Virus record (IMG/VR): IMGVR_UViG_3300030376_005233
Location: 1 to 31,456 of that record
Strand: one strand, 5' to 3'
Length of the DNA: 31,456 bases
Origin: a virus
Taxonomy: Duplodnaviria > Caudoviricetes
Of this stretch, positions 1,194 through 22,469 are shown piece by piece (within the stretch, counting starts at the first letter, position 1; each line of letters opens with the position of its first letter). The notes under the pieces were generated by a model. The model was not told the origin of the DNA. It ran no database searches and saw only the letters and a list, made by a program, of their open reading frames with translations. The translations under genes and the position numbers were made by a program.

Positions 1194-1495
1194 TCCTCTA
1201 TGCCCTCAGAGATCGCGTCAGAGACTAGCTGTTCGATAGCAGACTTCAGATAGCCCATGCGTCTCTCGTAGTGGCTTTTAGTGAGTTGGGTCAAGTCTTC
1301 TAGAATCTGCATTTCTCCCCCGCGACTTGAGCCCATGGCTTTGTGTACATGATCACCAAACCCATGGCCACCACACGTCTCTCCGAACAACGTCGAGATA
1401 ACTTGACCTACGGCTATGTCTATTTTTTCTTTAACGTCTTCTAAAGAAGAAGAATCAAACTCGCCTTCTCTAGACTCAGTGACTTTTATTTTCAT
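1190..1495 (-). CDS. Hypothetical head-module protein (101 aa)
   Basis: Overlaps its neighbours by 4 nt at both ends, suggesting translational coupling. No recognisable domain. Confidence 0.7.
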   Translation of the reverse strand: MKIKVTESREGEFDSSSLEDVKEKIDIAVGQVISTLFGETCGGHGFGDHVHKAMGSSRGGEMQILEDLTQLTKSHYERRMGYLKSAIEQLVSDAISEGIED

Positions 1496-2541
1496 CGTCT
1501 ACGCCTCGCCTCGTCTATCTGTAGACGTAACCCTTTAAGAACATCAGAGTAAGACATACCCTTCTTTGTCTCGTCCGGCTTGTCTTTCTTTTCTTTAGGT
1601 GGCGGATACCACTTCCGTCCTTTCGCATCGACGTGGGCGTTGTTACTGCTCTTTGGATCGGGCTCAAAGCCTTTAGGAGCGTCTGGATGCCTTTCTGGCT
1701 TAGGCTTGTCGTCGGCTTTGTCCTCTTCAGCCTTCTCCGCGTCTTTGGTGTCGGCTTTGTCCTTGTCCTTGTCCTTGTCCTTGTGTCCAGCAAACTTCTC
1801 TGCCTTCACTTTCCAGTTAGGGTCGTTGCCGGGTACAAAACCTTCCATAAACGCCCACAAGGCCCATTTTAGTTTAGAGCCGTTGAACTTCTTTTTTTCT
1901 TCGTCCTCTTTGCCGCCGTCTTTGTCAGTCTCTTTGTCTACCCATTCGTCGCTACTCATAGAGTCGGAAGAGCCTGCGGGATGCCATTTCCCCTCTTTCT
2001 TAGTAAACTTTTCTCCCGCTTCGGTCTCAATGCTCCAACCGTCAGGTAGTTTATCTAGGGCTTGAGCTACCGCATCCATCGACTTATCACCGTGATCTTC
2101 ACTGCCCTTGGCGTCGTCAGTCTTCTCGCTTTTCTCACGGCCTCCAGAACTGCCCCGTTTATACTGCCACTTCCCAGACGATAGCTTTCTTCTAGTGCCG
2201 CCGCGTGGACCAGCTTCCCAACCGCCAGCGTCTTTCACTAGGTCAATGACCTCAGATAGAAAACCGCCCTTTTCTAGCTCTTCCATAGCTGCGGTCTGGT
2301 CCGCTACCGTAACAACGGTAGCCCCTTCAGATACCGTATGACTCATGGCCTTCCGCTGTACGTGGTGCTTCGTCTCAGACAAAAGCCATTGAGGGATAAA
2401 AGCGGGCGGCTGCTGCTTATCTAAGTAGTCCCGAAGCTCTTGAGTAAGTCTCTGTCTATCTTCGGTAGAAACATCCACGGGCAAGACACCGCCAACCGGA
2501 CAAAGAGCGAGTAGCCTATCTCGTGCTTCTAGTGCGTTCAT
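1492..2541 (-). CDS. Lys/Asp-rich putative internal head protein (349 aa) with a degenerate copy of the shared leader
   Basis: Coupled to the SNF2 gene (ATGA). Highly charged and low in complexity. Contains LEKGGFLSEVIDLVK...GPRGG..RK..SGKWQYK and a C-terminal KKGMSYSDVLKG. Confidence 0.7.
   Translation of the reverse strand: MNALEARDRLLALCPVGGVLPVDVSTEDRQRLTQELRDYLDKQQPPAFIPQWLLSETKHHVQRKAMSHTVSEGATVVTVADQTAAMEELEKGGFLSEVIDLVKDAGGWEAGPRGGTRRKLSSGKWQYKRGSSGGREKSEKTDDAKGSEDHGDKSMDAVAQALDKLPDGWSIETEAGEKFTKKEGKWHPAGSSDSMSSDEWVDKETDKDGGKEDEEKKKFNGSKLKWALWAFMEGFVPGNDPNWKVKAEKFAGHKDKDKDKDKADTKDAEKAEEDKADDKPKPERHPDAPKGFEPDPKSSNNAHVDAKGRKWYPPPKEKKDKPDETKKGMSYSDVLKGLRLQIDEARRRR
1757..1784. repeat. 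Coding hexamer tandem repeat (TTGTCC) x about 4.7, encoding KDKDKDKDK
   Basis: Read directly from the sequence. Confidence 0.9.
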
Positions 2542-5500
2542 TCCGATTCTCCTTTCTTCGCTGCGTCGGCTTCTGCCTTTCTCTTTCGGGCTTTCTCTTG
2601 CTCTTTTTCGTAGATACGCCGCTGCTTCTCCTCAATCTCTTCTAGAGTTTTCGGCTTCTCGTCAGTGGCCATAAAGTCAGAGGCATCTACACCAAGTGTT
2701 TCTGCAATGTTGTCCAGACTCAGCCCTGTTTTTCCGGGTTGGCGCATAGACACCGCGATCGCGTCGTCTGCCTCCATCGTTCGGCCCATGGCTTGAGCCG
2801 ACTGCATCAGCTTCCTAGATACTGTGCGTTCGACTAGCTCCTCTACAGGGTGCCCCGTTGGACGGTAGACAACGACGTTAGACGTCTGCCCTTGCCTGTG
2901 TACGCGAGCGATAGACTGAGCTAAGGCGTCTGGCTTCCACGGCGTATTAAGGTGAACGACGAAGTTCGCTCGATGCTGCAAGTTAGCCCCTGTCTGCAAC
3001 GCACCCGTGTTGCCGACAATCACTTTAATCGTTCCGTCGTTAAGGTCTTTCTCTGCTTGTCGCCGCTTCTTGTCAGACGTCGCGCCTGTGTAGACGGCTA
3101 TCTGATCTCTCGCTAATCCTTTAGCTACTAGAGCCTCAACCGCCGCTTTCACTCCCCCGTTATATTCGCAGAACATAACCGCGCCTTTATCGGGATTCTG
3201 AGATAGATGGTTCATCACTGTATCAGTGCAGTTATCCATCTTCGGGCTCATATACCCCGGAGCATCGTCAGAGAAGCGCCGCGCATAGCCTTCTTGGGCG
3301 TCGAGTAGACGAGGGTCTACAGATAGCTGGATCATACGCATCATGGCGTCCTGTCCGCCTACAGGCGCTGCTCTAGCCGCTGTTCGATCGATATGGTCTT
3401 TGTTATCGTCAGACCTAGCCTTGTCTAGGTCTAGTTGTAGAGTCTCCGCTCGTACACCAGCTTCTTCCGCTTCTGGGCCGCCTCCGCCAGCCTTTGCTCT
3501 AGCTTTGGCGATCTCGTTACGGACTTTCATCCAGTCCATAAGAGCAACCGCCATCTTCTCCTGCGTGTCGTCCATCGGGATTCTAGGAGCCAGATCTTTT
3601 CGTTCAGGCAGGTTTAGCTCTACGTCAGGGTCTGCGGTAGTCCTACAGAAGAACATGTCGGCAGAGTCTCGATACATGTTGCCTAGTTTCTCAGGACGGA
3701 AGCCTAAGATCTTGGCGTTCGCTCCTTTGCCTTCCGTGTAGCAGTAGTTCGTCCCGAACTCCTTAACGTCGTCTCCCAATGTGCCGGGAGCGATAGCGTT
3801 AATGATATGGAAGAAATCCTCTGCACCATTCGGTTTGGGCGTTCCGCTCATACCGACAACACGGCCAACCGGCTTACATACCGCGTCAACAAAGCCTTGC
3901 CCTTGAGCACTGTTAGGATCCTTGAACTGATGTACCTCGTCCGCAATACGAAGGGTGTCGTTTCCGTGCTTTTCCATTAAGCCCTTAATGATAGCGTAGT
4001 CGCTATCAGGCGGGATAACCTGAAGGGTCGGGTAACGGATTCCTTTAGCTCGTTGTTGGTTTCTAGCGGCCCGCTGTACAATGTTTATGTAGGATAGAAC
4101 ATCCTCTTCGTACATTGCCTGAACCTGCTCGTGCGTGAGGATCTCGTCGTAGGCGTAAGAAACATCTTCCTCATGCTGGCCTTGGTCTATCCTGACAGAG
4201 CGTGCCCAACCGCCTTCTACACGGGTGAAATAATCAGAAACGCCTTGCTGTCTGTGCGTTACCCGTATTTTTGTGCCCTCTGGGTAAGCCTCCATGGCTT
4301 TCCTCTGTTCCTTCTTAGAGAGCTTTTCCCCTTCCGTTTCTACTCGTTTTGTCTGGACGACTTCGTAGGTTTGAGGATCCCTGTATTCTGAACCCGTAGG
4401 TGTATCCGGCGCTAACTTAAAGTGATTAGGAATGTCTTCCCATCTTTTTTGTAGAGTCTGCGGAGTACAGACGATCGCTTGTGTCTCGCCTTTAGCCCAC
4501 GCCTCGTAAGCCGCTAGCCGTTGCTTCTTAGAAGCTCCGGTCAGAATAACGGCCTTGCCTTTACGCAGACGCCCTTTAGCTCTTCCCCGCTTCTCTGCAT
4601 CGTCGCCAAGATCCGAGAAGTTGGTGAAGTGATCCTCCCACGAACCGTGGGCCGACTTAGGAGCAGTGATAAACATCCGGTTAGCTTGGCCCTTCTCTCT
4701 AAGAGAATGATAAAGACCGATAGCAGATAACGTCTTGCCTAGACCCATTTCCATACCCCAGATGGCGCGAGGAGCATGGTTAAGACAAAAGTTGACGGCT
4801 TTTCGTTGGTACTCATGCAACGAAAAGCCTCTCTTGGTGAGCTTCTCCATACCCTTGGGAGTCTTGTACTCTCCGTCCTCGTGGCGTCTGTCGGTCACCC
4901 GGCCTATAGTTGTTTGCCAGTCTTCGTCTACAAAATAGCCCCAAAAGGCTTCTCGTTCGTCGTCTCTAAGGTTCGTCCACCAAGCCGCAAGGTTACGCGC
5001 TATAGGGGCATATACGCTCTGCATCTTTTCAGGAAGTTGCTCATACCGTTTACTTCTTCCAACAAGCCCATAGAAAAACTCTTTCTGGAAACCATGTGCT
5101 AATGGCCCTTCCGGGGCATTTTCCATGAATCCCGTATGCAGAAGAAGTTGAGCCGCCGTAAGCTCTTTAACGTCGTACTCTCCGGTAGGTAGTTGAGCCG
5201 CCGATCCGTCTTCTTCTCTCAGTTGGGGTATGTAGATCTTAAAACCTTTGTCGTTATAAGACGTCTTGAAGTTAAAGGGCTCAGGCAACATACCCAAGAA
5301 GTTCGGCGGACGGTTTTCAGCGACCTTAAACGCCTCTTGTTCAATAAGGTTACCCATATCGAACTCTTCCGCTAACAGGTACTCTTCTGCGCCTTCCGGT
5401 GCTTCGTCAGACAGTTTCTCAGAGCCGCTGCCCATAGCCGTCCTAACATCGACTTCACCAGCGGCAGGCTCTTCCCAAGTCTCCGTCTTATTTTCTCGAT

Positions 5501-6188
5501 GCCATTGAGCTACTTCCGCTGTTACCCATTTAGCAACGTCTCTACCTGCTTCGTCTTTGCGGACTAAACGAACAAGCCCTTGTTGGGTTAGCTCAACAAT
5601 GTTTACAGACTCACCCGGCTTTTCTACTACTTCTGTGTCGCTTTCAGGCATCCGATCCCAACCGGGCTCAGATTCCTTTTCCCCGACGTCCGCAAAGCCT
5701 GTCTCTGCCTCTTTAGCGGCACGCTCTTTCTCTCGCTCTTCCCGCTTCATCTGCCGCTTGGCGTCTCTATCTGCTTTCTCGTCTTGGCGCTTCTTTTCTG
5801 CCTCTTTAGCGGCTTCTACAACGTCAGCGAGGGTCTGCCCTTCGTGTTTGATCTTAGCCCGCGTAACATGCTCTTGCATACCCGCTGCGGCCATTGCCTC
5901 TCTAACAAGATCTAGAGACGACTTGCCCTCTTCTGCTTCTACCGCTGTAGGCTTCTTGCTTGGCGTCTTTCCAGACGGCTTCTTTTTGCGTGAGCTTGAG
6001 CCCGATGTCTTCGCCTTCGTTCCGCTTTGCTTCTTCTTCCCTTTAGGCTCTGTGTACTTGTAGTCGCCCCAACCCCACGACATTCTCCCGTGCTTGTCTC
6101 GTTTAAGCACACGCTTTTTCGACTTGTATTTGCCGCCCTCTTGCCCTTTTTTGAGGTCTATCAAGTCAATGATGTCTGAGTATTTCAT
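2538..6188 (-). CDS. SNF2/SWI2-family ATPase with a long N-terminal extension (1216 aa), probably virion-associated
   Basis: Motifs: Q motif LHEYQ, I MEMGLGKT, Ia ITAPKS, II DEVH, III MSGTP, SPK, IV VMFCEY, V TGANLQ, PW-P, VI QSIARVHRQGQ. The start overlaps the portal stop (TAATG). Confidence 0.93.
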   Translation of the reverse strand: MKYSDIIDLIDLKKGQEGGKYKSKKRVLKRDKHGRMSWGWGDYKYTEPKGKKKQSGTKAKTSGSSSRKKKPSGKTPSKKPTAVEAEEGKSSLDLVREAMAAAGMQEHVTRAKIKHEGQTLADVVEAAKEAEKKRQDEKADRDAKRQMKREEREKERAAKEAETGFADVGEKESEPGWDRMPESDTEVVEKPGESVNIVELTQQGLVRLVRKDEAGRDVAKWVTAEVAQWHRENKTETWEEPAAGEVDVRTAMGSGSEKLSDEAPEGAEEYLLAEEFDMGNLIEQEAFKVAENRPPNFLGMLPEPFNFKTSYNDKGFKIYIPQLREEDGSAAQLPTGEYDVKELTAAQLLLHTGFMENAPEGPLAHGFQKEFFYGLVGRSKRYEQLPEKMQSVYAPIARNLAAWWTNLRDDEREAFWGYFVDEDWQTTIGRVTDRRHEDGEYKTPKGMEKLTKRGFSLHEYQRKAVNFCLNHAPRAIWGMEMGLGKTLSAIGLYHSLREKGQANRMFITAPKSAHGSWEDHFTNFSDLGDDAEKRGRAKGRLRKGKAVILTGASKKQRLAAYEAWAKGETQAIVCTPQTLQKRWEDIPNHFKLAPDTPTGSEYRDPQTYEVVQTKRVETEGEKLSKKEQRKAMEAYPEGTKIRVTHRQQGVSDYFTRVEGGWARSVRIDQGQHEEDVSYAYDEILTHEQVQAMYEEDVLSYINIVQRAARNQQRAKGIRYPTLQVIPPDSDYAIIKGLMEKHGNDTLRIADEVHQFKDPNSAQGQGFVDAVCKPVGRVVGMSGTPKPNGAEDFFHIINAIAPGTLGDDVKEFGTNYCYTEGKGANAKILGFRPEKLGNMYRDSADMFFCRTTADPDVELNLPERKDLAPRIPMDDTQEKMAVALMDWMKVRNEIAKARAKAGGGGPEAEEAGVRAETLQLDLDKARSDDNKDHIDRTAARAAPVGGQDAMMRMIQLSVDPRLLDAQEGYARRFSDDAPGYMSPKMDNCTDTVMNHLSQNPDKGAVMFCEYNGGVKAAVEALVAKGLARDQIAVYTGATSDKKRRQAEKDLNDGTIKVIVGNTGALQTGANLQHRANFVVHLNTPWKPDALAQSIARVHRQGQTSNVVVYRPTGHPVEELVERTVSRKLMQSAQAMGRTMEADDAIAVSMRQPGKTGLSLDNIAETLGVDASDFMATDEKPKTLEEIEEKQRRIYEKEQEKARKRKAEADAAKKGESE

Positions 6189-7813
6189 TACTCTACCTCC
6201 ACAATAACCGACTTAACGCGAGGATGTCTGGTCAGGCTCTTTTCTACCTCTTCCGCCTCTCCGCCTAACTTACCTGCTAACAGCTTATCTACATCGAAGT
6301 CTGTATCGCCCTCAAAGCCTTCTTCTTCGCCTTCGCCCTCAAAGCCTTCTTCTTCGCCTTCGCCTTCGCCTTCGCCGCCGCCTTCTTCTTCTTGTGCGGC
6401 CATCATAGACGCCGTGTTCATGTAGCTAGCATTCATAATCATGTCGCCCACAGGAGACTCTAGAGGCTCCAGATCGTACATGGCCCGTGTTTCGTTGATT
6501 GTACGGAAGTTCTGGCAAGCCTTGATGTCGAGATCGACCTTTGCAGTCTCAGACATAGAATCGAAGCCAACGAACTCGATCATTAGCTCCGGGTCGATCT
6601 TCCAGATAACACCGCTGTTGATCCACGACTGCACTGAACGAAGCATTGGCCTAAGACCGCGCTCTCGTGAGTACGTTAGCTGGTCTCCGGGGCCGCTACC
6701 GCTTAGGCTGCTTGACTGGTTCTCGTTACCGTATTGGTAACCAAGCTCTGCCGCGTCCATCCCGTAGACCATGCACGCTTGGCGCAAGAGAAAACTAAGC
6801 CACTGCGTAAACTCCATGTCCTTATTCGACTGGGACATAGACACGTTTTGAAGTTCTTCTTTGTTCTCTGGGTCTAACTGAATGATAGGTGTCCGGTGAG
6901 CGTTAGACGCTCCTGATAACATCGCGTAGAACTCCCTACGGAACGCTCTGAACAACTGCGGGTTCATCTTGGATTTAACCGCTAGGATGCCGCTAGTGTG
7001 CATCCCGTTAGTGAAGTTGTTCGCGTTGAAGTTCTCTGCGTTAAGCAGGTTAGTCACCACCCTAATAAGCTCTTCAAGCTCCGGGTAACCGTATCCGTTG
7101 CTCTTAATCCAAGTGCGCGGACGACGTACACCGAAGACTAGCTCTTCGCTACTAAAGTCGGCGACTTTCTTTTGATTGATAACCTGAACGTATCCGGTCT
7201 TAACAGGATCGTAGCGTCCGGCTTTTCTTTCTTTGTCGGACAACTTAGCGCGGCGCACTGTGCTTGCGTCTACAGCGAGAAGTCCTGCAATCTTTCCGCC
7301 GCGTGTTTTAACCACCTCAAACGTAGCTTGATCAAAGACGAGGCTATCCCGAAGAATCTTACGAATAAAGGTCTCGAAACGATTGTCGTAGCCAAGGCGA
7401 GTGTCCCCGCAAGTGGATATCCACCGCGTCATTTCTTCGATTCGTTTAATGTCCGCTTCTGACGGATCTTCAGTCTGGTCTCGAAGAACAATACGGTAGC
7501 CCAACGAGTAAGGAGTCTGTTGAGGAATACAGAACTCCGCAACCTGATTGATCCGGGTGTTGATAATCGCGCTGATTAACGGGATTCGCGACATGCGTCT
7601 AAGGGTCTTAAAGTCCAACCCGGACGCGCCCTCTCGATTCTCCAGACCCATAGCGGCCTGCATTTCCTGAAAGGCAAAGTCGCCTACGTCAATCTCCCAC
7701 GACTTAGGAATAGGCATAGGCCCGTTTTCTGGAGCCATGTTACCTTTTTCTAGGGTGTCGCTGGCTTCTTCGTTAGTCCCTTTGTTGGGAAGTATAAAGT
7801 CGTACCAAGCCAT
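6188..7813 (-). CDS. Phage portal protein (Twort/SPO1-like type)
   Basis: Motifs AIINTRINQV, RDSLVFDQ, GYGYPELE, DMEF.QWL..L, YGMD.AE.G, SRERGLRP.L and TINE.R match portals of Herelleviridae-like phages as I recall them. Acidic C-terminal tail. Confidence 0.92.
   Translation of the reverse strand: MAWYDFILPNKGTNEEASDTLEKGNMAPENGPMPIPKSWEIDVGDFAFQEMQAAMGLENREGASGLDFKTLRRMSRIPLISAIINTRINQVAEFCIPQQTPYSLGYRIVLRDQTEDPSEADIKRIEEMTRWISTCGDTRLGYDNRFETFIRKILRDSLVFDQATFEVVKTRGGKIAGLLAVDASTVRRAKLSDKERKAGRYDPVKTGYVQVINQKKVADFSSEELVFGVRRPRTWIKSNGYGYPELEELIRVVTNLLNAENFNANNFTNGMHTSGILAVKSKMNPQLFRAFRREFYAMLSGASNAHRTPIIQLDPENKEELQNVSMSQSNKDMEFTQWLSFLLRQACMVYGMDAAELGYQYGNENQSSSLSGSGPGDQLTYSRERGLRPMLRSVQSWINSGVIWKIDPELMIEFVGFDSMSETAKVDLDIKACQNFRTINETRAMYDLEPLESPVGDMIMNASYMNTASMMAAQEEEGGGEGEGEGEEEGFEGEGEEEGFEGDTDFDVDKLLAGKLGGEAEEVEKSLTRHPRVKSVIVEVE
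6306..6375. repeat. 27-bp direct repeat plus (TCGCCT)n, encoding the acidic EGEGEEEGF tail of the portal
   Basis: tcgccctcaaagccttcttcttcgcct occurs twice in tandem. Confidence 0.85.
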
Positions 7814-7815
7814 AG

Positions 7816-10800
7816 CTATTGTTTCCCCCCTAGAAGCGCCTCAAAGAATCCTCTTCTAAATAAGGACTTCTGAAGCATGTTTGCTTTCGATATTGCCTGA
7901 ATAAGCTCTTCCATCGCCTCACCTATCCTTTTCCGCTCTTCTCCTTGCGGGTAGGGCTGTGCGTACTTCGCCTTGGGCTTTTCTTCGTCAAAAGGAGTCG
8001 GAGGCATTGCTTCGTCTAGTGCGGCTACAAGACGTCGGTAGCGGTCCTGCTTTTCGTAATACGCATATCTCATCTCGTTGTAGCCCTTCGATTCTCGCGC
8101 TTGCTCATAAGCCTTTTGTAGACTTCTAGTTCGCGTTGTTTCGAGAATAACCTGCGCTTGCATCTCAAGCTCTTCAGACAACTTGTCGTACAAGTCGTCT
8201 GACTCTTTCTTAGCCGCGTCTATCTCGTCCTTAAAAACGGCCCTTTGCTTGTCAGCTTCTGCGCTCTCGTGAGCGTGCTTTCTGTTAGTCCACGCCCTAA
8301 CTTCTTCGACGTCGGGGTCTACCATCTTGCCCGATACGCGGTAGGTCTTTGTCCCCGTAACTAAGTACGTGCTCTCTCGGCCTTGTTTCTCTAGCTTGTC
8401 GCTTAGGTACGTTTCAAAGGCCCGCGCAAACATCTCATGCGGACGCGACCAATAGTCGCCCATAGCCTCAGAGTGCCTAGCAAACTCAGACCGCTTAGTT
8501 CCCACCTCTATATCGTAGGAGCCCGGACCTCTTCCTAACCCTTCTGGGTCTTGTCGGCAATACCTAGAGCGTACATCTGTTTCCGAGTTAAACATCGCCA
8601 TGTGAACCTTTTGGTAAGCCTTCATAACAGAACCAAAGGGCTCTTTGTGGAACTCGGTAAAGTCGATCTTACCGGCCTTGAAACCGTCTGTTACAGCCTG
8701 CATTGTCTTAACTTCGATAGACGCAATACTCAGCTTCTCCGCCAACACGTTGTCGATAAAGTGGCCCCACTCGTGAGCTAACGATCCGCCGCCCGAAATA
8801 GAAGTAAGGTTGATGATCTTGTCGGCAGGTTCGTAGTGAGCCGCCGCGTGTCCGGTCCCTCTAGCTCCAATAGCAATAGCTAGTTTACCTCCCCACGATA
8901 GGTCTTTCGGATCTTCAAGATCCATCAGGTCCGCTAAGTCAAACAACCCTCCGTGTAGTTGCTGGATATGGTGGTCTAACTCGGCGGTAGACATATGGCT
9001 ATCAGAGTTACTGTACTGTAGGTTTTTAAGGTTAAAGTCTTTAATGACTTGCTTTTCGTCGGCTTCTTTAATGACTTTTTGAGCGTACTTCCGCACACCC
9101 TTGCCCGCTGTACGAACGACTTTATCAGGAAGCGACCGCTTCCACCGCTCTCCCTTAGTTACCTCGATACCTGCTTCTTTAAGCTCTTTCTCCTTCTGCT
9201 CTTTCTCTGCTTTCTTGCGGTCCTTTTGGAGCTTGACGTCTTCCGCTTCGACTCCTAAGTCTCTCCACATCTCTTCTTCAGGAAGACCGTCTTTGCTCAT
9301 ATCTGAGCTAGCGACCATTCCTCTATGGGCTGCGAGCGCGTCGTCTTTTTGTCGAACTACATCTGCTTCGGCGGCGACTAGCTCCTCGCCGGTAACGATG
9401 TCTTCCCAACCGTGCATAGCCACGACGCTAGAACCTACACTAAAACCTAACGGTCGATCGTGCGTCATCTCGACAATGTTTTTGCTCCACGCAATAGCGC
9501 GAGCAAGTTTCTTCTTGTCGTTCTTGTGCCTTTTCCCACCAAGACCGTTCTCAATGAACCGCTTACCGAGCGCCGCTAAGGCTTTTCTCGTGGTATTGCT
9601 TTTCGCGTGTTGTTCTTTTTCCTCGTCAGTCAGAAGGTAGCTACTGTGCCGCCCCGCCATCTCTGTATAAAAACGCTGTTTAGCGTCCGGGTCTCCGTAG
9701 TACGAACTGCCGCCTTCTAGCCCTAACGGCCTAGCGATCTTTGCGACGTCTTGGAGCCCTGCTCGAACCGCTTCTCTACGTCGTAGCTTTTGTTTGTGCT
9801 CCCATTCGCTTATGTCCATCCCGTCGTTGACTGCTTTGAACACGTAGCCCGAACTGAACATCTTTAGATCTTGAAGCACCGCGAAACAGTCTTGTGGAGT
9901 AACCGCCCGATCAAGCGACTGCTGAAGAAGCTCCACACCCGCGAGGTAGTTCTTACGGCCTTCTAGGCTATTAGGAGCGTCTTTCTGAACGAGGCTCCAG
10001 ATCCAGTCTTTGACCACATAGGTGTCTGGCCGCTCGCCCTCTAGCATTGCCTGTTTCGGCTTTCTAGGAGGAACAAGAGCTTTCTTTGACACCACCGTTA
10101 TCTGTTGGGCGTTAGACATCTGATCTAGAGCTTCCGGCGTAACTCCGTGAAACTTATCGAATCTAGACCCAAAGACGTGCTCCCCTTGCTCACGAGCCGT
10201 GTGCTTACCTCCCGCCTTGGCTTTTTCTTGTCTTTTTGTAGCTTCTGCTATCTTAGCAGGAGAAAGGAAAGGCTCGCCCGTATCCAAACGAGCGTAGATC
10301 ACAGGCTTGGCGTCTTTCTTCTTTTTGCCCGGAGGAAACTCAGACACAAACCTGAACTTGCCCCGCTTTGTGTCGCTGTATTTCTGGTTTAGCTCTCGAA
10401 CAGTGAGACCGGCAAACTCCTCAATGCGTTTTGAAAGAAGTTGGTCTACCATTGCGTCTTGCTCGCCGTCGTAGATCTCGGCGGTAGCGATAGACTTCAA
10501 CTCTACCCATTCGCCTTTAGCTCCGCGAACTGCTTCGAGCATGTTGTCTTCGCCCGGATATTCCTGCTTGAACTCGCCTGTTGCCTCTGCTTTCTTGATC
10601 CAAGAAGTAGCCCAATCCTTCAGTACGCGCTCTCTTTCTTCTGCCGCCTTAACGCGCCTTCTCGCCTCTACGGCCCGCTTCGTCTCGGCCTCCTCAAGAG
10701 CCTTCTTCTCTGCTGCTCGCCGGTCTCTTTCTGCATCTCGTTGTTCACGGCGTGCTTCACGTTCTCTTTTCTGCTGTTCTCGGAGTTCCTCTAGCTCTTC

Positions 10801-13749
10801 TGGAGATAGCCCGCCGCCTTCTGTAGTGGTTGCCTCGCCCTCTGGGGGATCAGGGAGTGCGACGTAAAGCCCCATATCATTTAGGCGCTCTATGAGAACC
10901 GTATGTAGGTGGTCTACGCTATTCCTAGCTACAATCTTCATAGCCGCGCCGCGTAACGGCTGCTCTTTTGACGCTTCCTGTACCGTATAGAGAATACGGA
11001 CAGGCGGGTGTTTAGTGTGTGTGTCGGGGTTTTGCCAGTCCCAGTCGCTATTCCAACCTCTATGAACGGCTTTCATTAAGCGTTCAAACACCTTTACGTG
11101 CTTGTCTTGGCCGTCAAACTCACCCAGTCCTTCAAAGTGGAACACTGCCCCTTTCGCGTCTTTATTCACAATATCAGGACGCCACTTGTTGAAGTCTTTC
11201 ACGCCGTAGTAGTGAGATAGTAACTGCTGCATCTGTTCTTCAGTCGTGTCAGAAGAGATGCTGACCACAGGAACGCCCGCCGCGTCTGCAATCTTCTTAG
11301 CAGTAGTAACAGTACCTTCTTCGGGGTTCTGGGGGATCTGCCGCCAGTCCCAGTCTCGAACCTCCGCCTCTATCCTTGCTTCGCGCACGACATCGGTTAG
11401 GTTATCTGCGCCTCCAGTTGTTACAGCTTCTTCGGCTTCTTCGGCTTCGTCGTCTTCCGTGGGCTCTGCGTGATGCTCTTCAATCGCCGAATACAGTTTA
11501 GCAAGGTCTTCCTGAAGCGCCTTGTATGCTCCTGCCGGGTCCGCTTCTATCGCGTGCGCGTGTACCAGATTGTTAATCCGGTTAATAAGTTCTTCTAGGA
11601 CAGGGCTCTCTACACCTTGCTCCGCCGCGTGCTCCATCAGAACCATCGTAGCATCGACAAGCGATTGGTGGCTCTTCGGCATCCGTTCCCAACCGGCCTC
11701 AATGTCTGTCTCTGTTTGCTCAATAGCCTCTTCGACTACCTCAGTAAGCGTACCGCCGCCTTCGGTCGTAACCTCTGGCTCTGCTGTAACCTCTGGCTCT
11801 GCTGTAACCTCTGGCTCTGCTGTAGCTTCTTCGACTACCTCAGTAAGCGTACCGCCGCCTTCGGTCGTAACTTCAGGCTCTGGTAACGTGCCCTCTTTAG
11901 CGTGAGAAAGCACCTGAACGCCTTTAGACGGTAAACCCGCGCCCGTAAGCTCTGCCGCTATCTCGTGGACTTTATCCGCTCGATAATCTTCAGATTCCCA
12001 ACGCCTAGACTTAGGCCAAAACCAAAACCCCTGCCTTCTGGACCATCTTAGCCCGTGTTTTTTTGCCACCGGACGCAAGCGATCTACGTCTCCGCGTTCA
12101 GTGTTGAGGATACGAATACCCTCGCCAGCCTCAAAATGCACCTCTACACGAGCGTCTGCCGGTCCCGTAACCTTGACCCCATGGTGGTGCTCTTCTTCGT
12201 GCTGTGTAGCCTCTTCCGTGGTCTTCTCGACGGCTTCTTCTGGGGTGTCAGTGCCGCCGCCTTCGGTCGTGACCTCCGGTGCCTGCTCTTCTTCCTCCGC
12301 TTGCTCTTTTTCAAACGACTGTACTAGCTTGAAATCAGCCGTTGGTGATGGCTGGAAGTAGACGCCGCCTTTGATACGAGAAGAGAACACTCCCCCGCTA
12401 ACGGTCACCTCGCCGTTGTCCATCATAACGCCACCGCCGCGTTTTTTTCCGGGCGGTGGTCCAAGGTCCACGTATTTAATCCCGTGGAGTTTGTGGTCTA
12501 AATAAGAGCTATCCGGGTCGTAGGCCGCTCCCGATCGCACTTTTGCCGGGTCAATAGCCCCTCTGACAGATAGAACAGTCCGACGCTTACCGTTAACTAG
12601 AACGACGTCGCCGGGTAGTAGCTTTTGGTACTCCGCCCGATAATGCTCGTGCTCTGCCGCTTTCTTCGCCTGCCTTTCTTCGAGCGTATCCTCTGGCATA
12701 CGCTCCCAACCAGCTTCTGACTCCTGCTCTACTGCCGTACCGCCTGTGCCTCCGCCTTCAGTGGTTGCTTCTGGCTCTGGCGTTGCTTCTGGCTCTGCTC
12801 CCGGCATCTCATAACCAAGCGACTCTAGACGCTTGGCAATCAACCTAAGCATCTGCGCCTTAGACAAAGTGCGCGGCTTTCCTTCGCCTTCGCCCTTCTC
12901 TTTCTTTTCTCCCTTCTCTCTTTCCGGCTTCTCTCCGCCTCCGGTGTCCTTTTTGTCCGGGCGAGCCTCAATGTGAGCCTTTAGGGCTAGAAGAAGCTCT
13001 ATATCATCGGTGTTGAGGATGAAGTTCACCATGGCTTGGTTCAACGGCGGGTTAGCCGCGTCTACAAGCTCTCGGTAGTCAACGGAAGCACCCTTGTTAG
13101 GGTCAGCGCCGTGAGCAAAGAACTCTACGTCGTCCTTTTCTGGTTCCTGCTGCGTCAAAAACCCTTTCTTCTCAAACGCAGAGTAGACCGAAGAACGAAG
13201 ACCGGGGTTGTTTCCGATGTACTCAAAGAGGTTCTCGGCTTCGTCGTCACGTAGGGTGTCTTCTATCTCAGCCGTAGAGGCACCGTAGTGGCTTGCTATA
13301 CTGTCTAGAACCATGTCCTTTAGGGAAGGAGCCAGACTATCCAGAAAACGCGAGTTAAGCGCCCCTTTGGTAGGCGCTGTGTGCGCCGTCTTTAGGTAAG
13401 CTCCTGAGAAGGAACCTTCTAACGTCCAGTGGCTGTCTCCGTTAGTCGGACGTCGCCACTGATCGTAGGTCTCTTCCGCGTCCATGTTCTTAGGTTGAAT
13501 AGGATTTGGTGGCTCTTGTTTCTTCTTGCCGGACAGATTGAAGAGCCAGTCAACAAGGTTTTTAGACGTCTTGCCTTTTTTGGCTTTCTCGTCTTTCTTC
13601 TTTGCTGCTTTACGGCCCTTCTTTGGCTTGGCGTACTTGTGTACCCATTTCATCTTTCCGGTCTTCGGATCTCGAACGCGCTTACGAGAAACGTATTTAC
13701 CGCCCTCTTTGGCCTTAATCAGATCCAGAATGTCGTTAAAAGTAGCCAC
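7816..13749 (-). CDS. Giant polyvalent protein (1977 aa) with LPD5-like, zincin metallopeptidase (HExxH) and LPD1-like C-terminal domains
   Basis: GTG start with a GGAGG RBS. The C-terminal part has LAIAIGARG..AAAHYEP..IINLT...GGGSLAHEWGHFID (HEWGH at 8761-8775), then YWSRPHEMFARAFE.Y..DKL...YLV and PYPQGEER, the LPD1 pattern. GEHVFGSRFD at about 10.17 kb resembles the LPD5 start GEKIGGARKD. Confidence 0.85.
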   Translation of the reverse strand: MATFNDILDLIKAKEGGKYVSRKRVRDPKTGKMKWVHKYAKPKKGRKAAKKKDEKAKKGKTSKNLVDWLFNLSGKKKQEPPNPIQPKNMDAEETYDQWRRPTNGDSHWTLEGSFSGAYLKTAHTAPTKGALNSRFLDSLAPSLKDMVLDSIASHYGASTAEIEDTLRDDEAENLFEYIGNNPGLRSSVYSAFEKKGFLTQQEPEKDDVEFFAHGADPNKGASVDYRELVDAANPPLNQAMVNFILNTDDIELLLALKAHIEARPDKKDTGGGEKPEREKGEKKEKGEGEGKPRTLSKAQMLRLIAKRLESLGYEMPGAEPEATPEPEATTEGGGTGGTAVEQESEAGWERMPEDTLEERQAKKAAEHEHYRAEYQKLLPGDVVLVNGKRRTVLSVRGAIDPAKVRSGAAYDPDSSYLDHKLHGIKYVDLGPPPGKKRGGGVMMDNGEVTVSGGVFSSRIKGGVYFQPSPTADFKLVQSFEKEQAEEEEQAPEVTTEGGGTDTPEEAVEKTTEEATQHEEEHHHGVKVTGPADARVEVHFEAGEGIRILNTERGDVDRLRPVAKKHGLRWSRRQGFWFWPKSRRWESEDYRADKVHEIAAELTGAGLPSKGVQVLSHAKEGTLPEPEVTTEGGGTLTEVVEEATAEPEVTAEPEVTAEPEVTTEGGGTLTEVVEEAIEQTETDIEAGWERMPKSHQSLVDATMVLMEHAAEQGVESPVLEELINRINNLVHAHAIEADPAGAYKALQEDLAKLYSAIEEHHAEPTEDDEAEEAEEAVTTGGADNLTDVVREARIEAEVRDWDWRQIPQNPEEGTVTTAKKIADAAGVPVVSISSDTTEEQMQQLLSHYYGVKDFNKWRPDIVNKDAKGAVFHFEGLGEFDGQDKHVKVFERLMKAVHRGWNSDWDWQNPDTHTKHPPVRILYTVQEASKEQPLRGAAMKIVARNSVDHLHTVLIERLNDMGLYVALPDPPEGEATTTEGGGLSPEELEELREQQKREREARREQRDAERDRRAAEKKALEEAETKRAVEARRRVKAAEERERVLKDWATSWIKKAEATGEFKQEYPGEDNMLEAVRGAKGEWVELKSIATAEIYDGEQDAMVDQLLSKRIEEFAGLTVRELNQKYSDTKRGKFRFVSEFPPGKKKKDAKPVIYARLDTGEPFLSPAKIAEATKRQEKAKAGGKHTAREQGEHVFGSRFDKFHGVTPEALDQMSNAQQITVVSKKALVPPRKPKQAMLEGERPDTYVVKDWIWSLVQKDAPNSLEGRKNYLAGVELLQQSLDRAVTPQDCFAVLQDLKMFSSGYVFKAVNDGMDISEWEHKQKLRRREAVRAGLQDVAKIARPLGLEGGSSYYGDPDAKQRFYTEMAGRHSSYLLTDEEKEQHAKSNTTRKALAALGKRFIENGLGGKRHKNDKKKLARAIAWSKNIVEMTHDRPLGFSVGSSVVAMHGWEDIVTGEELVAAEADVVRQKDDALAAHRGMVASSDMSKDGLPEEEMWRDLGVEAEDVKLQKDRKKAEKEQKEKELKEAGIEVTKGERWKRSLPDKVVRTAGKGVRKYAQKVIKEADEKQVIKDFNLKNLQYSNSDSHMSTAELDHHIQQLHGGLFDLADLMDLEDPKDLSWGGKLAIAIGARGTGHAAAHYEPADKIINLTSISGGGSLAHEWGHFIDNVLAEKLSIASIEVKTMQAVTDGFKAGKIDFTEFHKEPFGSVMKAYQKVHMAMFNSETDVRSRYCRQDPEGLGRGPGSYDIEVGTKRSEFARHSEAMGDYWSRPHEMFARAFETYLSDKLEKQGRESTYLVTGTKTYRVSGKMVDPDVEEVRAWTNRKHAHESAEADKQRAVFKDEIDAAKKESDDLYDKLSEELEMQAQVILETTRTRSLQKAYEQARESKGYNEMRYAYYEKQDRYRRLVAALDEAMPPTPFDEEKPKAKYAQPYPQGEERKRIGEAMEELIQAISKANMLQKSLFRRGFFEALLGGKQ
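11729..11871. repeat. 44-bp exact direct repeat (period 99 bp) enclosing an 18-bp tandem repeat; encodes EVTTEGGGTLTEVVEEA and AEPEVT linkers
   Basis: tcttcgactacctcagtaagcgtaccgccgccttcggtcgtaac at 11729-11772 and 11828-11871, with gctgtaacctctggctct units between. Confidence 0.9.
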
Positions 13750-13759
13750 CAGTTACCTC

Positions 13760-16700
13760 CTAATATGACGACATACCGGACTTGAGCTTGGTACACATAC
13801 GCTGTACCTGCTCGTCCGACCACTTAGGGTACGCCGCTCTAACCGCCGCTTCTACCGACTTGCCCTGCTTCATATGCGCCTTGACCTTTTCCATGTTCTT
13901 AAAGAACTGGTCTCGGACAATCGTAGCGAACGTAGAAGATGCTGTCTGGACTTCGCGATGCTTCTTTAGTGTAGAAGAAAAACTAAAGCTCTTCTTTGCG
14001 GAGTCCCTCTCTTTGCCTGTAGCCGCGTTGTGAGGATGGTTAGCCGGTAACCCGTCTTTACCTACATTCATCGGCATAATAACGTGTTTTTCTCCGTCTC
14101 CACGGGTGATAATGACGGGATCTCGTGGTCCCGTGTATTGGACCTTAATAGGGCCTTTTGCCCCTTCTAGGGCTTGCTTCACGTATTTGCCGTTAAGTAC
14201 CGCTAATTTCCCTTTGCCTTTGTGTTTTTCTGCCGCCGTATGTTTAGTGCCGTGCATCCCTGCGTGTATCGCGTCTTTGTGATCCTCGTACTCTGCGGTG
14301 TGTGCCGCTTGGACGTGAACCTCTCCGCCTTCAGTAAAGATATGGAAATGAGGGTTTCCCGTTTTCTTACTAGCGTGTGCGCTCGTAGTAGAGTGATGCG
14401 CGTGAGCCATAAACGCCTCGGCATCGAAGGTATGAGTATGCTTCGCGTCCTCTTTAGGCATAGCCCGTTTCCAGTCGGGAAACGCTCCGTGGTCTGCTTC
14501 GACCACTTTGCCGGTCTTCTTGCCCTTTTTCGGCATACTGCCCGCATGGCCCCCTGGCCCCCATTTGGGTCGTACATACTCCTTCGCGCCAACCACTTCG
14601 TGAGCGTAGGCTTTGCCCTCTTCCATCTTGTCCGATACAGGGATCATAGCGATTCGGTGACCGTCTGTAGAGACCATGAACCGCTGGCCTCCGTGGTCTG
14701 CTATCACCGATTGCTTTAGCTGCTTCTGTGCAAACTCGCCACTCGCTTGAAAGCTGCTAGACCGCTTATGGGCACTGTCTACAGAATCGTGCGTCTTCGC
14801 CACGGATCCAAAAGCACCGGGTTTGTTGGACGCTGTAGCTTCAACAGCATCGTGCGAATCCTTAGCTCTCTTGCGCCGATTCGCTTCCGTTTTGGCTTTG
14901 TTTCTCCGTGACCAGATCGGGTTGTTTCTGTTGGACTCTTTGGTAGCGTGGTCGTTCATCTTCTTGATGGCTGCCGTGGCCTTTTTAGAAGCATCCCCAG
15001 ACATGTTGTTCGGGTCAAAACCGTCTAACTCTCCCTTGGCCTCCATATCCATGAGATGGTCCATCATGTAGGTCGCTTGCGGACCTGTCATAGCCCCGCC
15101 AATCCCTAGACCAGCCGCTACGTGAGTCACGCGAACCTTGCCCTTATCCTTCGGATCCTTCGTGATGGCCCAGTCGCCTTTGCCGTAGATCGTCGCGGGA
15201 ACTTCGGTCCCTTCTCCGCCGTGTGTGTTTTTAACAGTAACTGTACCCTTCTTGCCTTTTTTAGCTTTCGGGGGTCCGGCGTCCGCGTAGACGCCGTGCC
15301 CTAGATCTTCTAGGTGTCCAGCCTCGACCATCTCCTTGTGCTGCTTCTCGTATTTCGCGTGGCGCTTTGCGTTCTCTTCTTCGTTCCTAGAACCGCCCTG
15401 CTTGCCCGGTTTTAGTGCTGGAGTAACGAGGTAGCCTTCGTCGTGAATATCCTCAAGACGTTCTTTGTTAGACAACATGCCTGTAGACTCCTCCTTAGCA
15501 GGAGCCTCCTTCTCTTTGGCTTTGTCGGTCCTCGGCTTTCCAGTCGTCGAAGACGGGCTAGGATCTCCCGCCCGTGAGATCCCCATTTCAGCGTAGCGTT
15601 GAGCCTCGCTCTTTCCGTAGATGCCTACGTGTAGCTCGTGGTGACCTGGGTCGGACGCCTTGGCGTTAGCCACGAACCGTCTAGTACCCTCTTCAGCACC
15701 GGCTTCCCCGTAGACATATCCCGCGCTCTTGAAGCCTGCCGCGTGCTGTAGGTGGATAGAATCGCCGTGGCTAGTCGCGATGTACGTCTTACCGTCTACT
15801 TGAACGATCTTGACCTTCTTGCCAGACGTCGTTTTCTTCGGCTTGTTCCAAGAGCCCGTCTTCGGGTTCTTGGTCTGCATGACACCGCGCTCGTTGCCGT
15901 TCTTCATCTTCTCGACGGAAAAACGCGCTTGAGTACGCGAACGCCCGTAAGGGTAATCATCGACATCAAGCGTGTCGTGATAAGTAGCGCCGTCCAAGCT
16001 AGGCACCTTGCGCTTCTTGTCAGTAGCGATGTTAGGTGCTGGACCGCCCGCTTCCGCCTTGGGCTTCTCTTCGGTCTTAGGTCCAGACGCAAGCCACTTA
16101 TCGAACTCGTCCTGAAGTTTCTTCGTCTTGGTCTTTGGTAACGGCCCTACTTCGGCTTCGTACTCGGACCACTTCTTGTTAGTCCATGCCATAAAGTCGA
16201 TGTTGCTAGGCTTCTTCCCAGCGGCTTCCGTAGCGTCTAGGTACGCTTGGTAACGGGCAGTTACTTCCGCCTTGGGCTTCTCTTCCGCCTTCGGTGCTGC
16301 CTCGAAGAACTTGTCCACCACCTCGTTGTTGATCATCCCTGTGAACAGGCTAAGCATGGTGTTGAACTTCAGGTTGCTTGCGGCTTTTTCGTTCTCTTTG
16401 AGGAGCTTTTTAGCCTCGGCAGAGTGAGCCGGGACTTCTCGTAGCTTACTCAAAAGCTCCCACTCAGCGTCTCCAAGCGGGAAGTTATCCGGCTTACTGC
16501 TAACGGCCTTCGGCTTCTCGTCTGCTTCTGGCTTCTTACCGGCTACTCTGTTCTCGCGGATCATTCGATCAACGAACTCTTTCGGTAGTTTACCGTTGTT
16601 CTCAGAAGCTACCGCCACAACGTCAACCGCGTCTTGCATACGGATACCCGGCAAAAGCTCTTCCGCCCGTGCCTGCATCTTCTTCGTAGCGTCAGGATCT

Positions 16701-17419
16701 CCCGAATGGTGACCGGCTAGCAAAGCCGCGTCTGGGTTTTTCTTTGCCCCGGCTTCTTCCGCCACCTGCGTGAGGGTCTTCTCTCCGCCCTTGCCGCTCT
16801 CTTTCTTCTCGTCAGTCTTCTCGGCTTCCGCTTTGGCTTCTCCGCCCTTGCCGCTCTCTTTCTCTTCAGACTGCAACTGACCGATCCGAGCCTCGACCAT
16901 CTTGAGTAGCGCGGCCATGCTCATGCGCTTCTCTTTCTCTTCTCCGCCCTCCTCCTTCTCTTTAGGCTCCTTGGGCTCCTTGGGCTCCTTCTCTTCGCCA
17001 CCTTCGGTCGTAGCCTTCTCTTCTTTGGGCGGCTTCTGCTTGACCAGCTTCTTTAGCGCCCCCCGTAGCTTGAGCAACTCGCCAAGGGTCATGTGGTTGA
17101 CCGCGCTCACCATAGAGTCCATGGGAACGCTCTTAGCTGATACAAGGGCCTCTAGAAGGCGCTTCAAAGCAGAGCCGCGACCCTTCTTCTTTGGCTCGTC
17201 GTACTTGTATTCCCACTTCCACTTGCCGGAACGTACAACGCGCTTCTTGGACTTGTATTTACCGCCGCGCTCTTGGCCACCTTTCAAGATGTCTGTAAAG
17301 AATCCGCCCTTATAAGCGGTGTCTTTTTCCTTCTTTGCTTTGTAGCCGCAGTTGCACTCTTCCCCTTTTGGGCAAGAGCATTTCTCTGTCTTTTTGTCTT
17401 CTTTGTCGTGGTAAGGCAT
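13760..17419 (-). CDS. Giant Lys-rich multidomain protein (1219 aa) with a C-terminal partial DNA polymerase III beta-clamp-like domain
   Basis: Start moved to the ATG at 17419 (AGGAG RBS; the longer start overlaps the upstream gene). MVSTDGHRIA, GAFPDWKRAMP, LNGKYVKQAL and HVIMPMNV align in order with the DnaN motifs VATDGHRLA, GRFPDYRRVLP, FNVSYVLDVL and YVVMPMRL. Confidence 0.82.
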   Translation of the reverse strand: MPYHDKEDKKTEKCSCPKGEECNCGYKAKKEKDTAYKGGFFTDILKGGQERGGKYKSKKRVVRSGKWKWEYKYDEPKKKGRGSALKRLLEALVSAKSVPMDSMVSAVNHMTLGELLKLRGALKKLVKQKPPKEEKATTEGGEEKEPKEPKEPKEKEEGGEEKEKRMSMAALLKMVEARIGQLQSEEKESGKGGEAKAEAEKTDEKKESGKGGEKTLTQVAEEAGAKKNPDAALLAGHHSGDPDATKKMQARAEELLPGIRMQDAVDVVAVASENNGKLPKEFVDRMIRENRVAGKKPEADEKPKAVSSKPDNFPLGDAEWELLSKLREVPAHSAEAKKLLKENEKAASNLKFNTMLSLFTGMINNEVVDKFFEAAPKAEEKPKAEVTARYQAYLDATEAAGKKPSNIDFMAWTNKKWSEYEAEVGPLPKTKTKKLQDEFDKWLASGPKTEEKPKAEAGGPAPNIATDKKRKVPSLDGATYHDTLDVDDYPYGRSRTQARFSVEKMKNGNERGVMQTKNPKTGSWNKPKKTTSGKKVKIVQVDGKTYIATSHGDSIHLQHAAGFKSAGYVYGEAGAEEGTRRFVANAKASDPGHHELHVGIYGKSEAQRYAEMGISRAGDPSPSSTTGKPRTDKAKEKEAPAKEESTGMLSNKERLEDIHDEGYLVTPALKPGKQGGSRNEEENAKRHAKYEKQHKEMVEAGHLEDLGHGVYADAGPPKAKKGKKGTVTVKNTHGGEGTEVPATIYGKGDWAITKDPKDKGKVRVTHVAAGLGIGGAMTGPQATYMMDHLMDMEAKGELDGFDPNNMSGDASKKATAAIKKMNDHATKESNRNNPIWSRRNKAKTEANRRKRAKDSHDAVEATASNKPGAFGSVAKTHDSVDSAHKRSSSFQASGEFAQKQLKQSVIADHGGQRFMVSTDGHRIAMIPVSDKMEEGKAYAHEVVGAKEYVRPKWGPGGHAGSMPKKGKKTGKVVEADHGAFPDWKRAMPKEDAKHTHTFDAEAFMAHAHHSTTSAHASKKTGNPHFHIFTEGGEVHVQAAHTAEYEDHKDAIHAGMHGTKHTAAEKHKGKGKLAVLNGKYVKQALEGAKGPIKVQYTGPRDPVIITRGDGEKHVIMPMNVGKDGLPANHPHNAATGKERDSAKKSFSFSSTLKKHREVQTASSTFATIVRDQFFKNMEKVKAHMKQGKSVEAAVRAAYPKWSDEQVQRMCTKLKSGMSSY

Positions 17420-17429
17420 GACTCGTCTC

Positions 17430-17720
17430 CTATGACTGCGCGTGGCTGTCTTGTGTCTGGTTAGCTTGCTCTTCTTCCAGAGCAAGAAGTATCTTTGCTT
17501 TTTCTACGTAGGCACGCGCCCGCACGTCGTCTCTTTCCATGATTGCGAACATATGTCCGTCATAATGAACTAGACGGCCCCCTTGGAGACCTAAAGCCAG
17601 TTCTATCGTCTCCACAGTATCGTCAGGGTGAGGACGAATAGCGAAGATGTTAGAAAAGCGAGCTAGCCCTCTCGCGTGTAGCGAGACTTTTTCTGTAGGA
17701 GTAAGTGCTTTTAGATCCAT
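17430..17720 (-). CDS. Hypothetical protein (96 aa)
   Basis: Start moved to the ATG at 17720, just after the upstream stop, with AGGGTGG upstream. Fills the gap in the operon. Confidence 0.65.
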   Translation of the reverse strand: MDLKALTPTEKVSLHARGLARFSNIFAIRPHPDDTVETIELALGLQGGRLVHYDGHMFAIMERDDVRARAYVEKAKILLALEEEQANQTQDSHAQS

Positions 17721-17724
17721 AGTT

Positions 17725-19422: not shown

Positions 19423-19696
19423 CTTCACCCCCCGGTGGCAGATGCTCTTCAGGCTCTGGTACAGGTTCGCCGTTTACCAGAACTGAGATGCCATTCTCAT
19501 AGGTGATAGTCTCAACCACTTGCCCCGATTCGTCCCACGTTGTATGTACGCCGATCGGCGTGTTCATGGCATACGCCTTTTTGCTTCGTAGCTCACCGCT
19601 TGGCCACTTTACGACCACTTCCCCGTCAACTTTGCCGTCAACCAAACTGCCCGTCACAATGCAGCCATCTGTCCTAGTTAGTTCGTAGGCACTCAT
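19409..19696 (-). CDS. Small MORN2-repeat (YwqK-like) protein (95 aa)
   Basis: The repeat pattern G..VDGK.DG....W.SG.L.....Y......G....W.ESG......YENG is typical of MORN variant repeats. Confidence 0.7.
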   Translation of the reverse strand: MSAYELTRTDGCIVTGSLVDGKVDGEVVVKWPSGELRSKKAYAMNTPIGVHTTWDESGQVVETITYENGISVLVNGEPVPEPEEHLPPGGEDGDL

Positions 19697-20745: not shown

Positions 20746-20748
20746 GCG

Positions 20749-22374: not shown

Positions 22375-22387
22375 GATCTCGTTCTCC

Positions 22388-22469
22388 GTTGAAAGAAGCC
22401 CGTTCAGGGAGCCGATCACCTCGGTGGGCTAATCCGCTTTCAACTCCGAGCGCAGGGTGAGCACTCGGA
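22388..22469 (-). promoter_or_regulatory. Structured intergenic RNA element (two adjacent stem-loops) between terL and the phosphoesterase gene
   Basis: A 9-bp stem at 22445-22469 (one G-U pair on the - strand), plus nested inverted repeats 22388-22395/22437-22444, 22397-22401/22426-22430 and 22412-22415/22421-22424. Confidence 0.5.

Follow-up and report, generated by a model that had tools for sequence, protein, structure and literature searches.

Three giant proteins encoded in the late head module of a phage carry the same two-part leader in front of unrelated cargo. The phage is represented by the 31,456-bp virus record IMGVR_UViG_3300030376_005233 (hereafter the window, i.e. the whole stretch of DNA that was analysed). 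The first part of the leader is a short predicted helix ending in a lysine motif, hydrophobic-x-K/[AGS] (the slash marks the putative cut), and the second is a basic predicted beta-hairpin with the signature GGKY; the arrangement is modular, and the cargo behind it is variable. We favour, as the more probable reading, a two-part tag in which the helix would serve as a removable prohead address and the hairpin as a retained DNA tether for co-ejection; packaging plus cutting, taken alone, appears very likely. The initial annotation had proposed a modular tag for loading or tethering. This still offers the best reading, and proteins with the same grammar are reported in the virions of a Lalka phage, but the unit consists of two separable parts with a probable cut between them.

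Anatomy of the leader

The leader spans amino acids (aa) 4-43 of the 1977-aa protein (13621-13740), aa 3-49 of the SNF2 protein (6042-6182) and aa 40-77 of the 1219-aa protein (17189-17302), all on the minus strand, as are all the head-module features of the window described below. A profile made from 24 outside proteins, with the window and its close relatives left out, matched exactly these three of 716 six-frame window segments (53.8, 22.4 and 28.2 bits, respectively), while the next-best segment reached 3.7 bits and the maximum of 200 local shuffles was 5.1 bits; it should be noted that the 24 proteins were themselves retrieved with a profile containing the window leaders, so that the test is not fully independent. 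The three peptides quoted in the initial annotation are present where it placed them and are confirmed by the profile, but in the 1219-aa protein the leader is not at the protein start: it begins at aa 40, preceded by a Cys-containing 37-aa stretch plus A-Y-K/G. This 37-aa start (17309-17419) has four cysteines and is conserved in the ortholog P0008, and a Cys-rich stretch is also found between the modules of P0001. Upon cutting, the Cys stretch of the 1219-aa protein would leave together with the propeptide.

The helix follows the pattern F-x-D-I/L-I/L and runs into the lysine site, which is K/[AG] in the three window leaders. It forms a predicted propeptide of 12 aa ending in L-I-K/A in the 1977-aa protein (13714-13749) and of 14 aa ending in L-K-K/G in the SNF2 protein (6147-6188); in the 1219-aa protein, A-Y-K/G is followed by the helix FFTDILK, ending in I-L-K/G (aa 35-47, 17282-17317), and the predicted propeptide is 46 aa long. 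Downstream of the lysine lie the GGKY hairpins, at 13621-13713 in the 1977-aa protein, 6042-6146 in the SNF2 protein and 17189-17281 in the 1219-aa protein. The net charge of the helix part is 0 to -1 and that of the portion behind the lysine +10 to +12 (+12 over aa 13-46, +10 over aa 15-53 and +10 over aa 47-82, in the same order). AlphaFold, run on the 1977-aa leader with a 31-row alignment, predicted a helix at aa 4-16 and strands at aa 19-26 and 33-39, with a predicted local distance difference test (pLDDT) score of about 83 in the hairpin.

No above-cut-off match to the leader was found in Pfam, PHROGs, NCBIfam, PDB, BFVD or the Atlas clusters, the one weak lead being phrog_37606 (E 0.03). 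Foldseek with the 50-aa leader model against viral structures returned no match at E<=0.001, tblastn of one leader and one outside member against 50,697 phage records returned none either, and a word-indexed search that used the first 60 residues of the 1977-aa protein gave 31 candidates, of which none scored.

A degenerate copy had also been noted in the gene for a 349-aa charged protein (1492-2541). At this place (aa 94-128; 2158-2277, including the L-E-K/G ahead of the helix) the helix is indeed shared, but the hairpin is of a different, GPRGG type. The copy was rejected as a member of the GGKY family, as the GGKY profile gives it less than 0 bits and hhalign aligns only seven helix residues with the GGKY leader, at 7% probability; AlphaFold gives it the same helix and hairpin shape (pLDDT 69, four sequences).

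The lysine motif as a probable head-maturation site

The nearest cultured records for the portal of the window phage (37-39% identity) and for the capsid protein of its head module, taken from a sister phage (24-27%), are SPO1-like and Twort-like phages, and on these similarities its head type is assigned to the SPO1/Twort lineage. A phrog_1028 head maturation protease is found in the head module of the sister phage (L001) and in that of a second relative, L007.

In this lineage the capsid chains of the Twort-like PDB entries 9row, 9rox and 9roz start at Ser25, immediately behind V-V-K24 of the full-length sequence 5lii, the cleavage being read from the deposited chain start. The site V-V-K24/S25 aligns with L-N-K/A of SPO1 and L-R-K/A of the capsid protein of the sister phage. 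In the open literature we found no paper giving a Herelleviridae capsid cut site, and the available part of PMC5923470 gives none (here and below, papers cited by PMC number and preprints are covered for their available parts). Capsid proteins and proteases of SPO1, Lalka8, Mecenats66 and MA9V-3 also have the motif at their N-termini, and the DAC16 capsid protein has it as well.

Portals carry it as well. Among the best 120 of 322 portal matches, the motif lies within the first 60 aa in 113 relatives (shuffles: mean 26, maximum 39) and within the last 45 aa in 75 (mean 12, maximum 27); the portal of the window has L-E-K/G at 7742-7753 and V-E-K/S at 6236-6247. Over 23 head-module proteins from three phages, it was found in the first 45 aa of 15 and in the last 45 aa of 13 (null 5.7 and 4.9), and the 14 other window proteins have two N-terminal and two C-terminal occurrences (null 2.0 and 1.6). 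Because the capsid chain starts behind V-V-K24 and the motif is conserved in portals and other head proteins, we strongly infer that it is the maturation-protease site of the SPO1/Twort head lineage. The idea that the helix mimics the portal N-terminus was rejected: aromatic-x-D-x-hydrophobic is found within the first 12 residues of 28 of the 120 portals (null 5.6, maximum 14), and the pattern is too loose.

Helix and hairpin are separable

A helix plus lysine pattern, drawn post hoc from the same sequences, was matched at 15 places across 12 cargo proteins (null mean 0.5, maximum 4) and in none of eight controls; it is also present once in the capsid propeptide of the sister phage. The initial annotation had named hits confined to the N-termini of head-module proteins as what would support it. 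This was not the distribution found: only eight of the 15 copies stand ahead of a hairpin, five being at C-termini and two at internal joints without a hairpin, and the motif occurs twice within single proteins of a relative. The window has its own C-terminal copy, a helix without hairpin in the 349-aa protein (pattern at 1531-1551; T-K-K/G to YSDVLK/G, 1531-1569).

The modular use of the parts is most evident in L007, whose portal is 60% identical to that of the window. One of its proteins has the full leader at the start and again internally, each time before a different module; its InPase protein contains two internal helices, a related GGKY hairpin and a helix at the end; a 216-aa gene has the hairpin at the start and the helix at the end; and a second, GGKY-like hairpin together with a ddrB-ParB cargo forms part of the fusion protein encoded by its 349-aa gene ortholog. 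Since lone helices are found at C-termini and at module boundaries, and since the 349-aa protein pairs the helix with another hairpin, the leader, judged from these arrangements, is not a purely N-terminal tag of the T4 type.

Distribution in other phages

The leader profile gave 34 matches at E<=0.001 among 1.84 billion representatives; four were seeds or their clusters, two Ig-repeat false positives were dropped, and 28 were kept. In all 28 the hairpin starts within the first 42 aa, with a lysine site no more than 9 aa ahead. A distant, AT-rich group of phages, whose helix differs, accounts for most of the 28; the cargo of these outside members mostly has no Pfam family, with SNF2 in one and a weak ankyrin match in another. 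Single-linkage clustering of 28 cargo segments (23 outside, five from the window and P0001) yielded 18 clusters. A clamp-like cargo in the outside member P0023 could not be confirmed by BLASTP, PHROGs or NCBIfam and was not used.

Where the context is known, the outside members sit among virion genes: two are found on contigs from a Leptospiraceae genome bin, one immediately behind the portal and the other behind a baseplate wedge gene; the portal ahead of the former is only 23% identical to that of the window. On contigs L011 and L017 of this bin, the same helix also stands ahead of a third hairpin type. The leader directly after the portal of L018 (4587-4830) heads a frame of only 57 aa, and in another frame just behind it lies a short remnant with a lysine site at its end, which suggests that the cargo was lost.

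Other short basic hairpins were seen by inspection behind the same lysine site in Mecenats66, MA9V-3, DAC16, L049 and L065. Such starts, of other types, lie at 3379-7933 and 14001-14708 of MA9V-3 (L029), 1423-6374 and 13782-17897 of Mecenats66 (L028) and 14458-16116 of DAC16 (L027), on proteins of NUDIX, helicase and unknown type; a NUDIX-like protein of MA9V-3 carries one of these hairpins at its C-terminus.

How the leader may work

According to the reading that we prefer, the helix would attach the cargo to the prohead, in the way that T4 propeptides attach theirs to the core. The head protease would then cut at the lysines, releasing the helices and splitting polyproteins, and the hairpin left at each new N-terminus would hold the product on the incoming DNA and bring it into the cell. 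There, the cargo (the SNF2 translocase, the LPD1/zincin polyvalent protein and the clamp-like domain) would act right after entry, possibly as anti-host effectors injected with the DNA. The helix is the presumed address because it recurs alone at C-termini and module joints, always beside a lysine site, and resembles the capsid-protein propeptide. The weakest step is the tethering: the hairpin may bind DNA, because the hairpins found after the lysine site are unrelated and interchangeable, having nothing in common but positive charge, aromatic residues and the two-strand shape.

A number of observations weigh against the two-part tag. The mean pLDDT of the whole leader model is only 68, and the leaders are no better conserved between orthologs than several downstream blocks. 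The lysine site is a loose three-residue motif that the 1977-aa protein by itself matches 11 times; the head proteins of the window, taken by themselves, give weak counts (N-terminal 4/7, P 0.08; C-terminal 4/7, P 0.03), the 23 head-module proteins compared are partly orthologous and hence not independent, and the figure of 28 out of 28 for the outside members is partly built in, as the lysine column was in the search profile. The protease and capsid genes had to be borrowed from the sister phage with 81% portal identity, since the window record stops earlier. In the Gp2 protein of Lalka, about 75 aa separate the site from the hairpin. Furthermore, the GGKY hairpin is absent from all five cultured phages of the SPO1/Twort head type, from all five uncultured portal relatives searched whole (mostly fragments) and from 49 of 51 portal loci (many of them short), so that it cannot be a lineage-wide address; and the nearest cultured relatives of the SNF2 protein are in SPO1-like phages, of which SP-10, the one inspected, has no leader.

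In a rival reading, the hairpin itself would be the address, docking on a head protein (the inner capsid surface, the portal, the scaffold or MuF), with the helix only presenting the cut site or masking the hairpin until maturation. The hairpin is the most conserved part: all 31 aligned leaders have the same G, G, K, G and Y, whereas the two phage groups have different helices. It is common to phages whose portals are only 23% identical, and one gene starts with the hairpin and has no helix ahead. However, most relatives with the same head have no GGKY hairpin, and two or three unrelated hairpins can follow the lysine site within one phage (GGKY and GPRGG in the window, with the third type in L011 and L017), which is why a generic partner fits better than one protein pocket. 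We consider a docking hairpin unlikely.

It is also conceivable, if rather improbable, that the proteins, once packaged and cut, have their role within the head itself, as basic core or DNA-condensing proteins, and that little or nothing of them acts in the host. Many of the 28 outside members are Lys-rich proteins of 140-280 aa without a Pfam family, the 1219-aa protein has a net charge of +45, and the functions of IPII and IPIII of T4 are unresolved (PMC9026906). On the other hand, the cargo includes SNF2, LPD1/zincin, InPase and ddrB-ParB, which Iyer et al. tied to injected polyvalent proteins (PMC5512222), and the proteins are accessory, since a relative with a 53%-identical portal (L033) has no cargo gene between portal and MuF. 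The corresponding region of L033 (4313-10666) is occupied by host-like or unrelated genes rather than by tagged cargo.

Least probable, in our view, is that the shared start is a leftover of duplication or shuffling among neighbouring late genes (a translation start or a recombination seam) with no targeting role: the three genes do have further linker motifs and a weak extra module in common, local DNA similarity between the leaders is visible, the leaders are not more conserved than other blocks and one outside copy heads the 57-aa remnant frame. Against this, the same hairpin, with its unvarying core, stands in front of 18 unrelated clusters of cargo, from phages with G+C contents of 36% and 52-57%; copies that are internal or C-terminal cannot be translation starts; and portals, proteases and capsid proteins all retain the lysine site.

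Comparison with known systems

One close counterpart of the two-part tag is the capsid-targeting sequence (CTS) of T4. T4 propeptides address cargo to the head via the core and are then removed, and Alt is trimmed at both ends (PMC9026906). Like the gp21-removed propeptides of IPI-III and Alt, the leader is a short shared propeptide on unrelated accessory head proteins that ends in a putative head-protease site, and, as Alt is cut at both ends, lysine sites are present at both ends of leader-bearing proteins. Unlike the T4 CTS, it belongs to an SPO1/Twort-type head and has a hydrophobic-x-Lys site rather than the Glu-specific gp21 site; its helix is also found C-terminally and within polyproteins, the mature protein would keep a conserved basic hairpin of 30 aa, and the cargo is as large as 1977 aa.

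In P1, the head-packaging signal of DarB, an anti-restriction protein of very large size that contains SWI2/SNF2, is an N-terminal region of 30 aa, and no consensus is common to the N-termini of the Dar proteins (PMC9024508). In the window phage, by contrast, a consensus is common to several cargos, and its SNF2 protein has only SNF2, Helicase_C and ResIII in Pfam and no methylase, the DarB-like PHROG matches covering the helicase part only. The leader would thus work like the T4 CTS and the DarB signal and yet appears to be neither, as protease specificity, head type, methylase and the extra retained hairpin differ.

Iyer et al. (2017; PMC5512222) described domains of polyvalent proteins in a late-gene context and predicted their packaging and injection; for conjugative elements they named ArdC-N as a 'header', and they assigned self-processing to the metallopeptidase. 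The available part of that paper describes neither a leader of helix, Lys site and hairpin nor processing by a prohead protease, and its supplementary alignments might hold such a motif. The likeness lies in the occurrence of LPD1, a zincin-type motif, SWI2/SNF2, InPase and ddrB-ParB in a late-gene context in the window phage and its relatives: terminase, portal and MuF are in the window, and protease, scaffold and capsid genes come next in the sister phage. By its predicted domains the 1977-aa protein qualifies as a polyvalent protein, with LPD1 above cut-off and the HExxH region in one chain; the 1219-aa and SNF2 proteins have one recognisable domain each.

The cultured Thermus phage Lalka27a is of the same head lineage. 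Its DarB-like Gp2 and a 1715-aa helicase (Lvh) are reported in purified virions in a preprint (bioRxiv 10.64898/2026.04.20.719267), which in its available part mentions neither a leader nor a cleavage. Lys sites, terminal helices and basic hairpins are all present in these proteins, but the hairpin sequences differ from those of the window. Lalka Gp2 has an N-terminal helix with L-A-K/A, a basic hairpin later on, and L-I-K/G plus a short tail at the end, while the 1715-aa helicase of Lalka8, which is near-identical to Lalka27a, has L-A-K/A followed by another hairpin; its best PHROG is phrog_62, as for the SNF2 protein of the window. In Twort-like/SPO1 capsid maturation (PDB 5lii compared with 9row), the short N-terminal propeptide removed after V-x-K before Ser is likewise comparable, but this concerns the capsid protein only and not cargo.

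In the open literature, subscription papers being outside the scope, no description of the leader was found. This includes the available parts of the Leptospira LE3/LE4 proteomics study (PMC6078989), the Mecenats66 paper and the 2024 Lalka paper, as well as those of PMC7824862, PMC11437467, PMC9503643, PMC5923470 and PMC10052503.

Cargo domains and other shared pieces

The C-termini of the giant proteins had been described as unrelated (clamp fragment; LPD5/zincin/LPD1; SNF2). The domains are in fact unrelated, and SNF2 and LPD1 pass the Pfam cut-offs, but LPD5 was looked for in the window proteins and not found, and the clamp is weakly supported. The clamp-like part lies near the C-terminus of the basic 1219-aa protein (13760-17419), at aa 978-1118 (14066-14488), where it gives a weak match to phrog_947 (E 2.6e-7), one to TIGR00663 below cut-off (E 1e-4), and hits to Atlas features. 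In the 1977-aa protein (7816-13749), the HExxH motif, HEWGH (aa 1659-1663, 8761-8775), is of the zincin type and falls inside a below-cut-off CLCA_X match, and the best stretch of LPD1 is at aa 1763-1804 (8338-8463; PF18796, 67.5 bits, cut-off 27); a C-terminal tail (7816-7893) follows two lysine sites, I-S-K/A and L-Q-K/S. The 1216-aa SWI2/SNF2 protein (2538-6188) belongs to phrog_62, and no methylase was detected in it with Pfam and PHROGs. Its ATPase has a long insertion between the first motifs and DExH (4000-4450), and PHROG and tblastn matches come in two pieces.

The leader is not, as had been supposed, the only common element of the giant proteins; their N-terminal parts also have linker motifs and a weak helical module in common, and the giant genes appear to have exchanged these pieces as well. 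The linker motifs lie at 11700-11850 and 12690-12710 in the 1977-aa gene, 5640-5830 in the SNF2 gene and about 16750-16780 in the 1219-aa gene. Helices of the T-L-T-E-V-V-E-E-A type are found in all three giant proteins and in a 1464-aa protein of L007, the motif G-W-[DE]-R-M-P in two of the giant proteins, and five TTEGGG-type repeats in the 1977-aa protein. The module, two helices split by a charged loop, comes after the leader in the 1977-aa (12760-13149) and 1219-aa (16790-17179) proteins (hhalign 40%, E 3e-4).

Genome setting

The order of genes on the minus strand is terminase, small genes, the 1219-aa gene (ATG at 17419), the 1977-aa gene directly upstream of the portal, the portal (6188-7813; PF04860), and the genes for the SNF2 protein, the 349-aa protein, a 101-aa protein and a short MuF minor head protein (111-1193) with neither cargo nor lysine site. 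The record ends at MuF, with the protease, scaffold and capsid genes outside it. The sister phage L001, with a portal 81% identical to that of the window, has an identical gene order, continuing past MuF with the phrog_1028 protease, a scaffold-like gene and a phrog_752 capsid protein. The same proteins as in the window are also present on a 79,848-bp contig.

Directly after the terminase is a gene (21283-22419) for a 378-aa metallophosphoesterase-like protein (phrog_7339) with a helix-turn-helix-like N-terminal part. In the sister phage, unrelated fibre-like genes (L015, 2403-5672) separate the counterparts of the 1219-aa and 1977-aa genes; the window instead has other accessory genes upstream (17725-21111). 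A promoter scan of the window gave four sigma-70-like sites against 8.3 expected, none of them at the leader genes.

Significance

The selection and loading of injected phage proteins are known in detail for a few systems only (T4, P1 and phiKZ-like phages). It is possible, though we advance it only tentatively, that the parts described here belong to a general cargo grammar of SPO1/Twort-type heads, in which an amphipathic address helix at either end of a protein or between modules would be clipped at Lys, and an exchangeable basic hairpin unmasked by the cut would hook onto the genome and drag in enzymes of up to 200 kDa. Such a grammar, if real, would have been missed so far because trypsin cuts at the same lysines: maturation cuts between Lys and Ala, Gly or Ser would resemble tryptic cuts, a predicted blind spot of standard virion proteomics, and tryptic virion data, those on Lalka included, could not reveal cleavage at lysine sites, as trypsin cuts after lysine.

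The tag can be tested in cultured Bacillus, Thermus or Chryseobacterium phages of the SPO1/Twort head lineage. If the reading proves true, a two-part, position-independent tag would explain both the loading of polyvalent proteins and their splitting into units, and sequence alone would suffice to list the injected effectors of a large head lineage.

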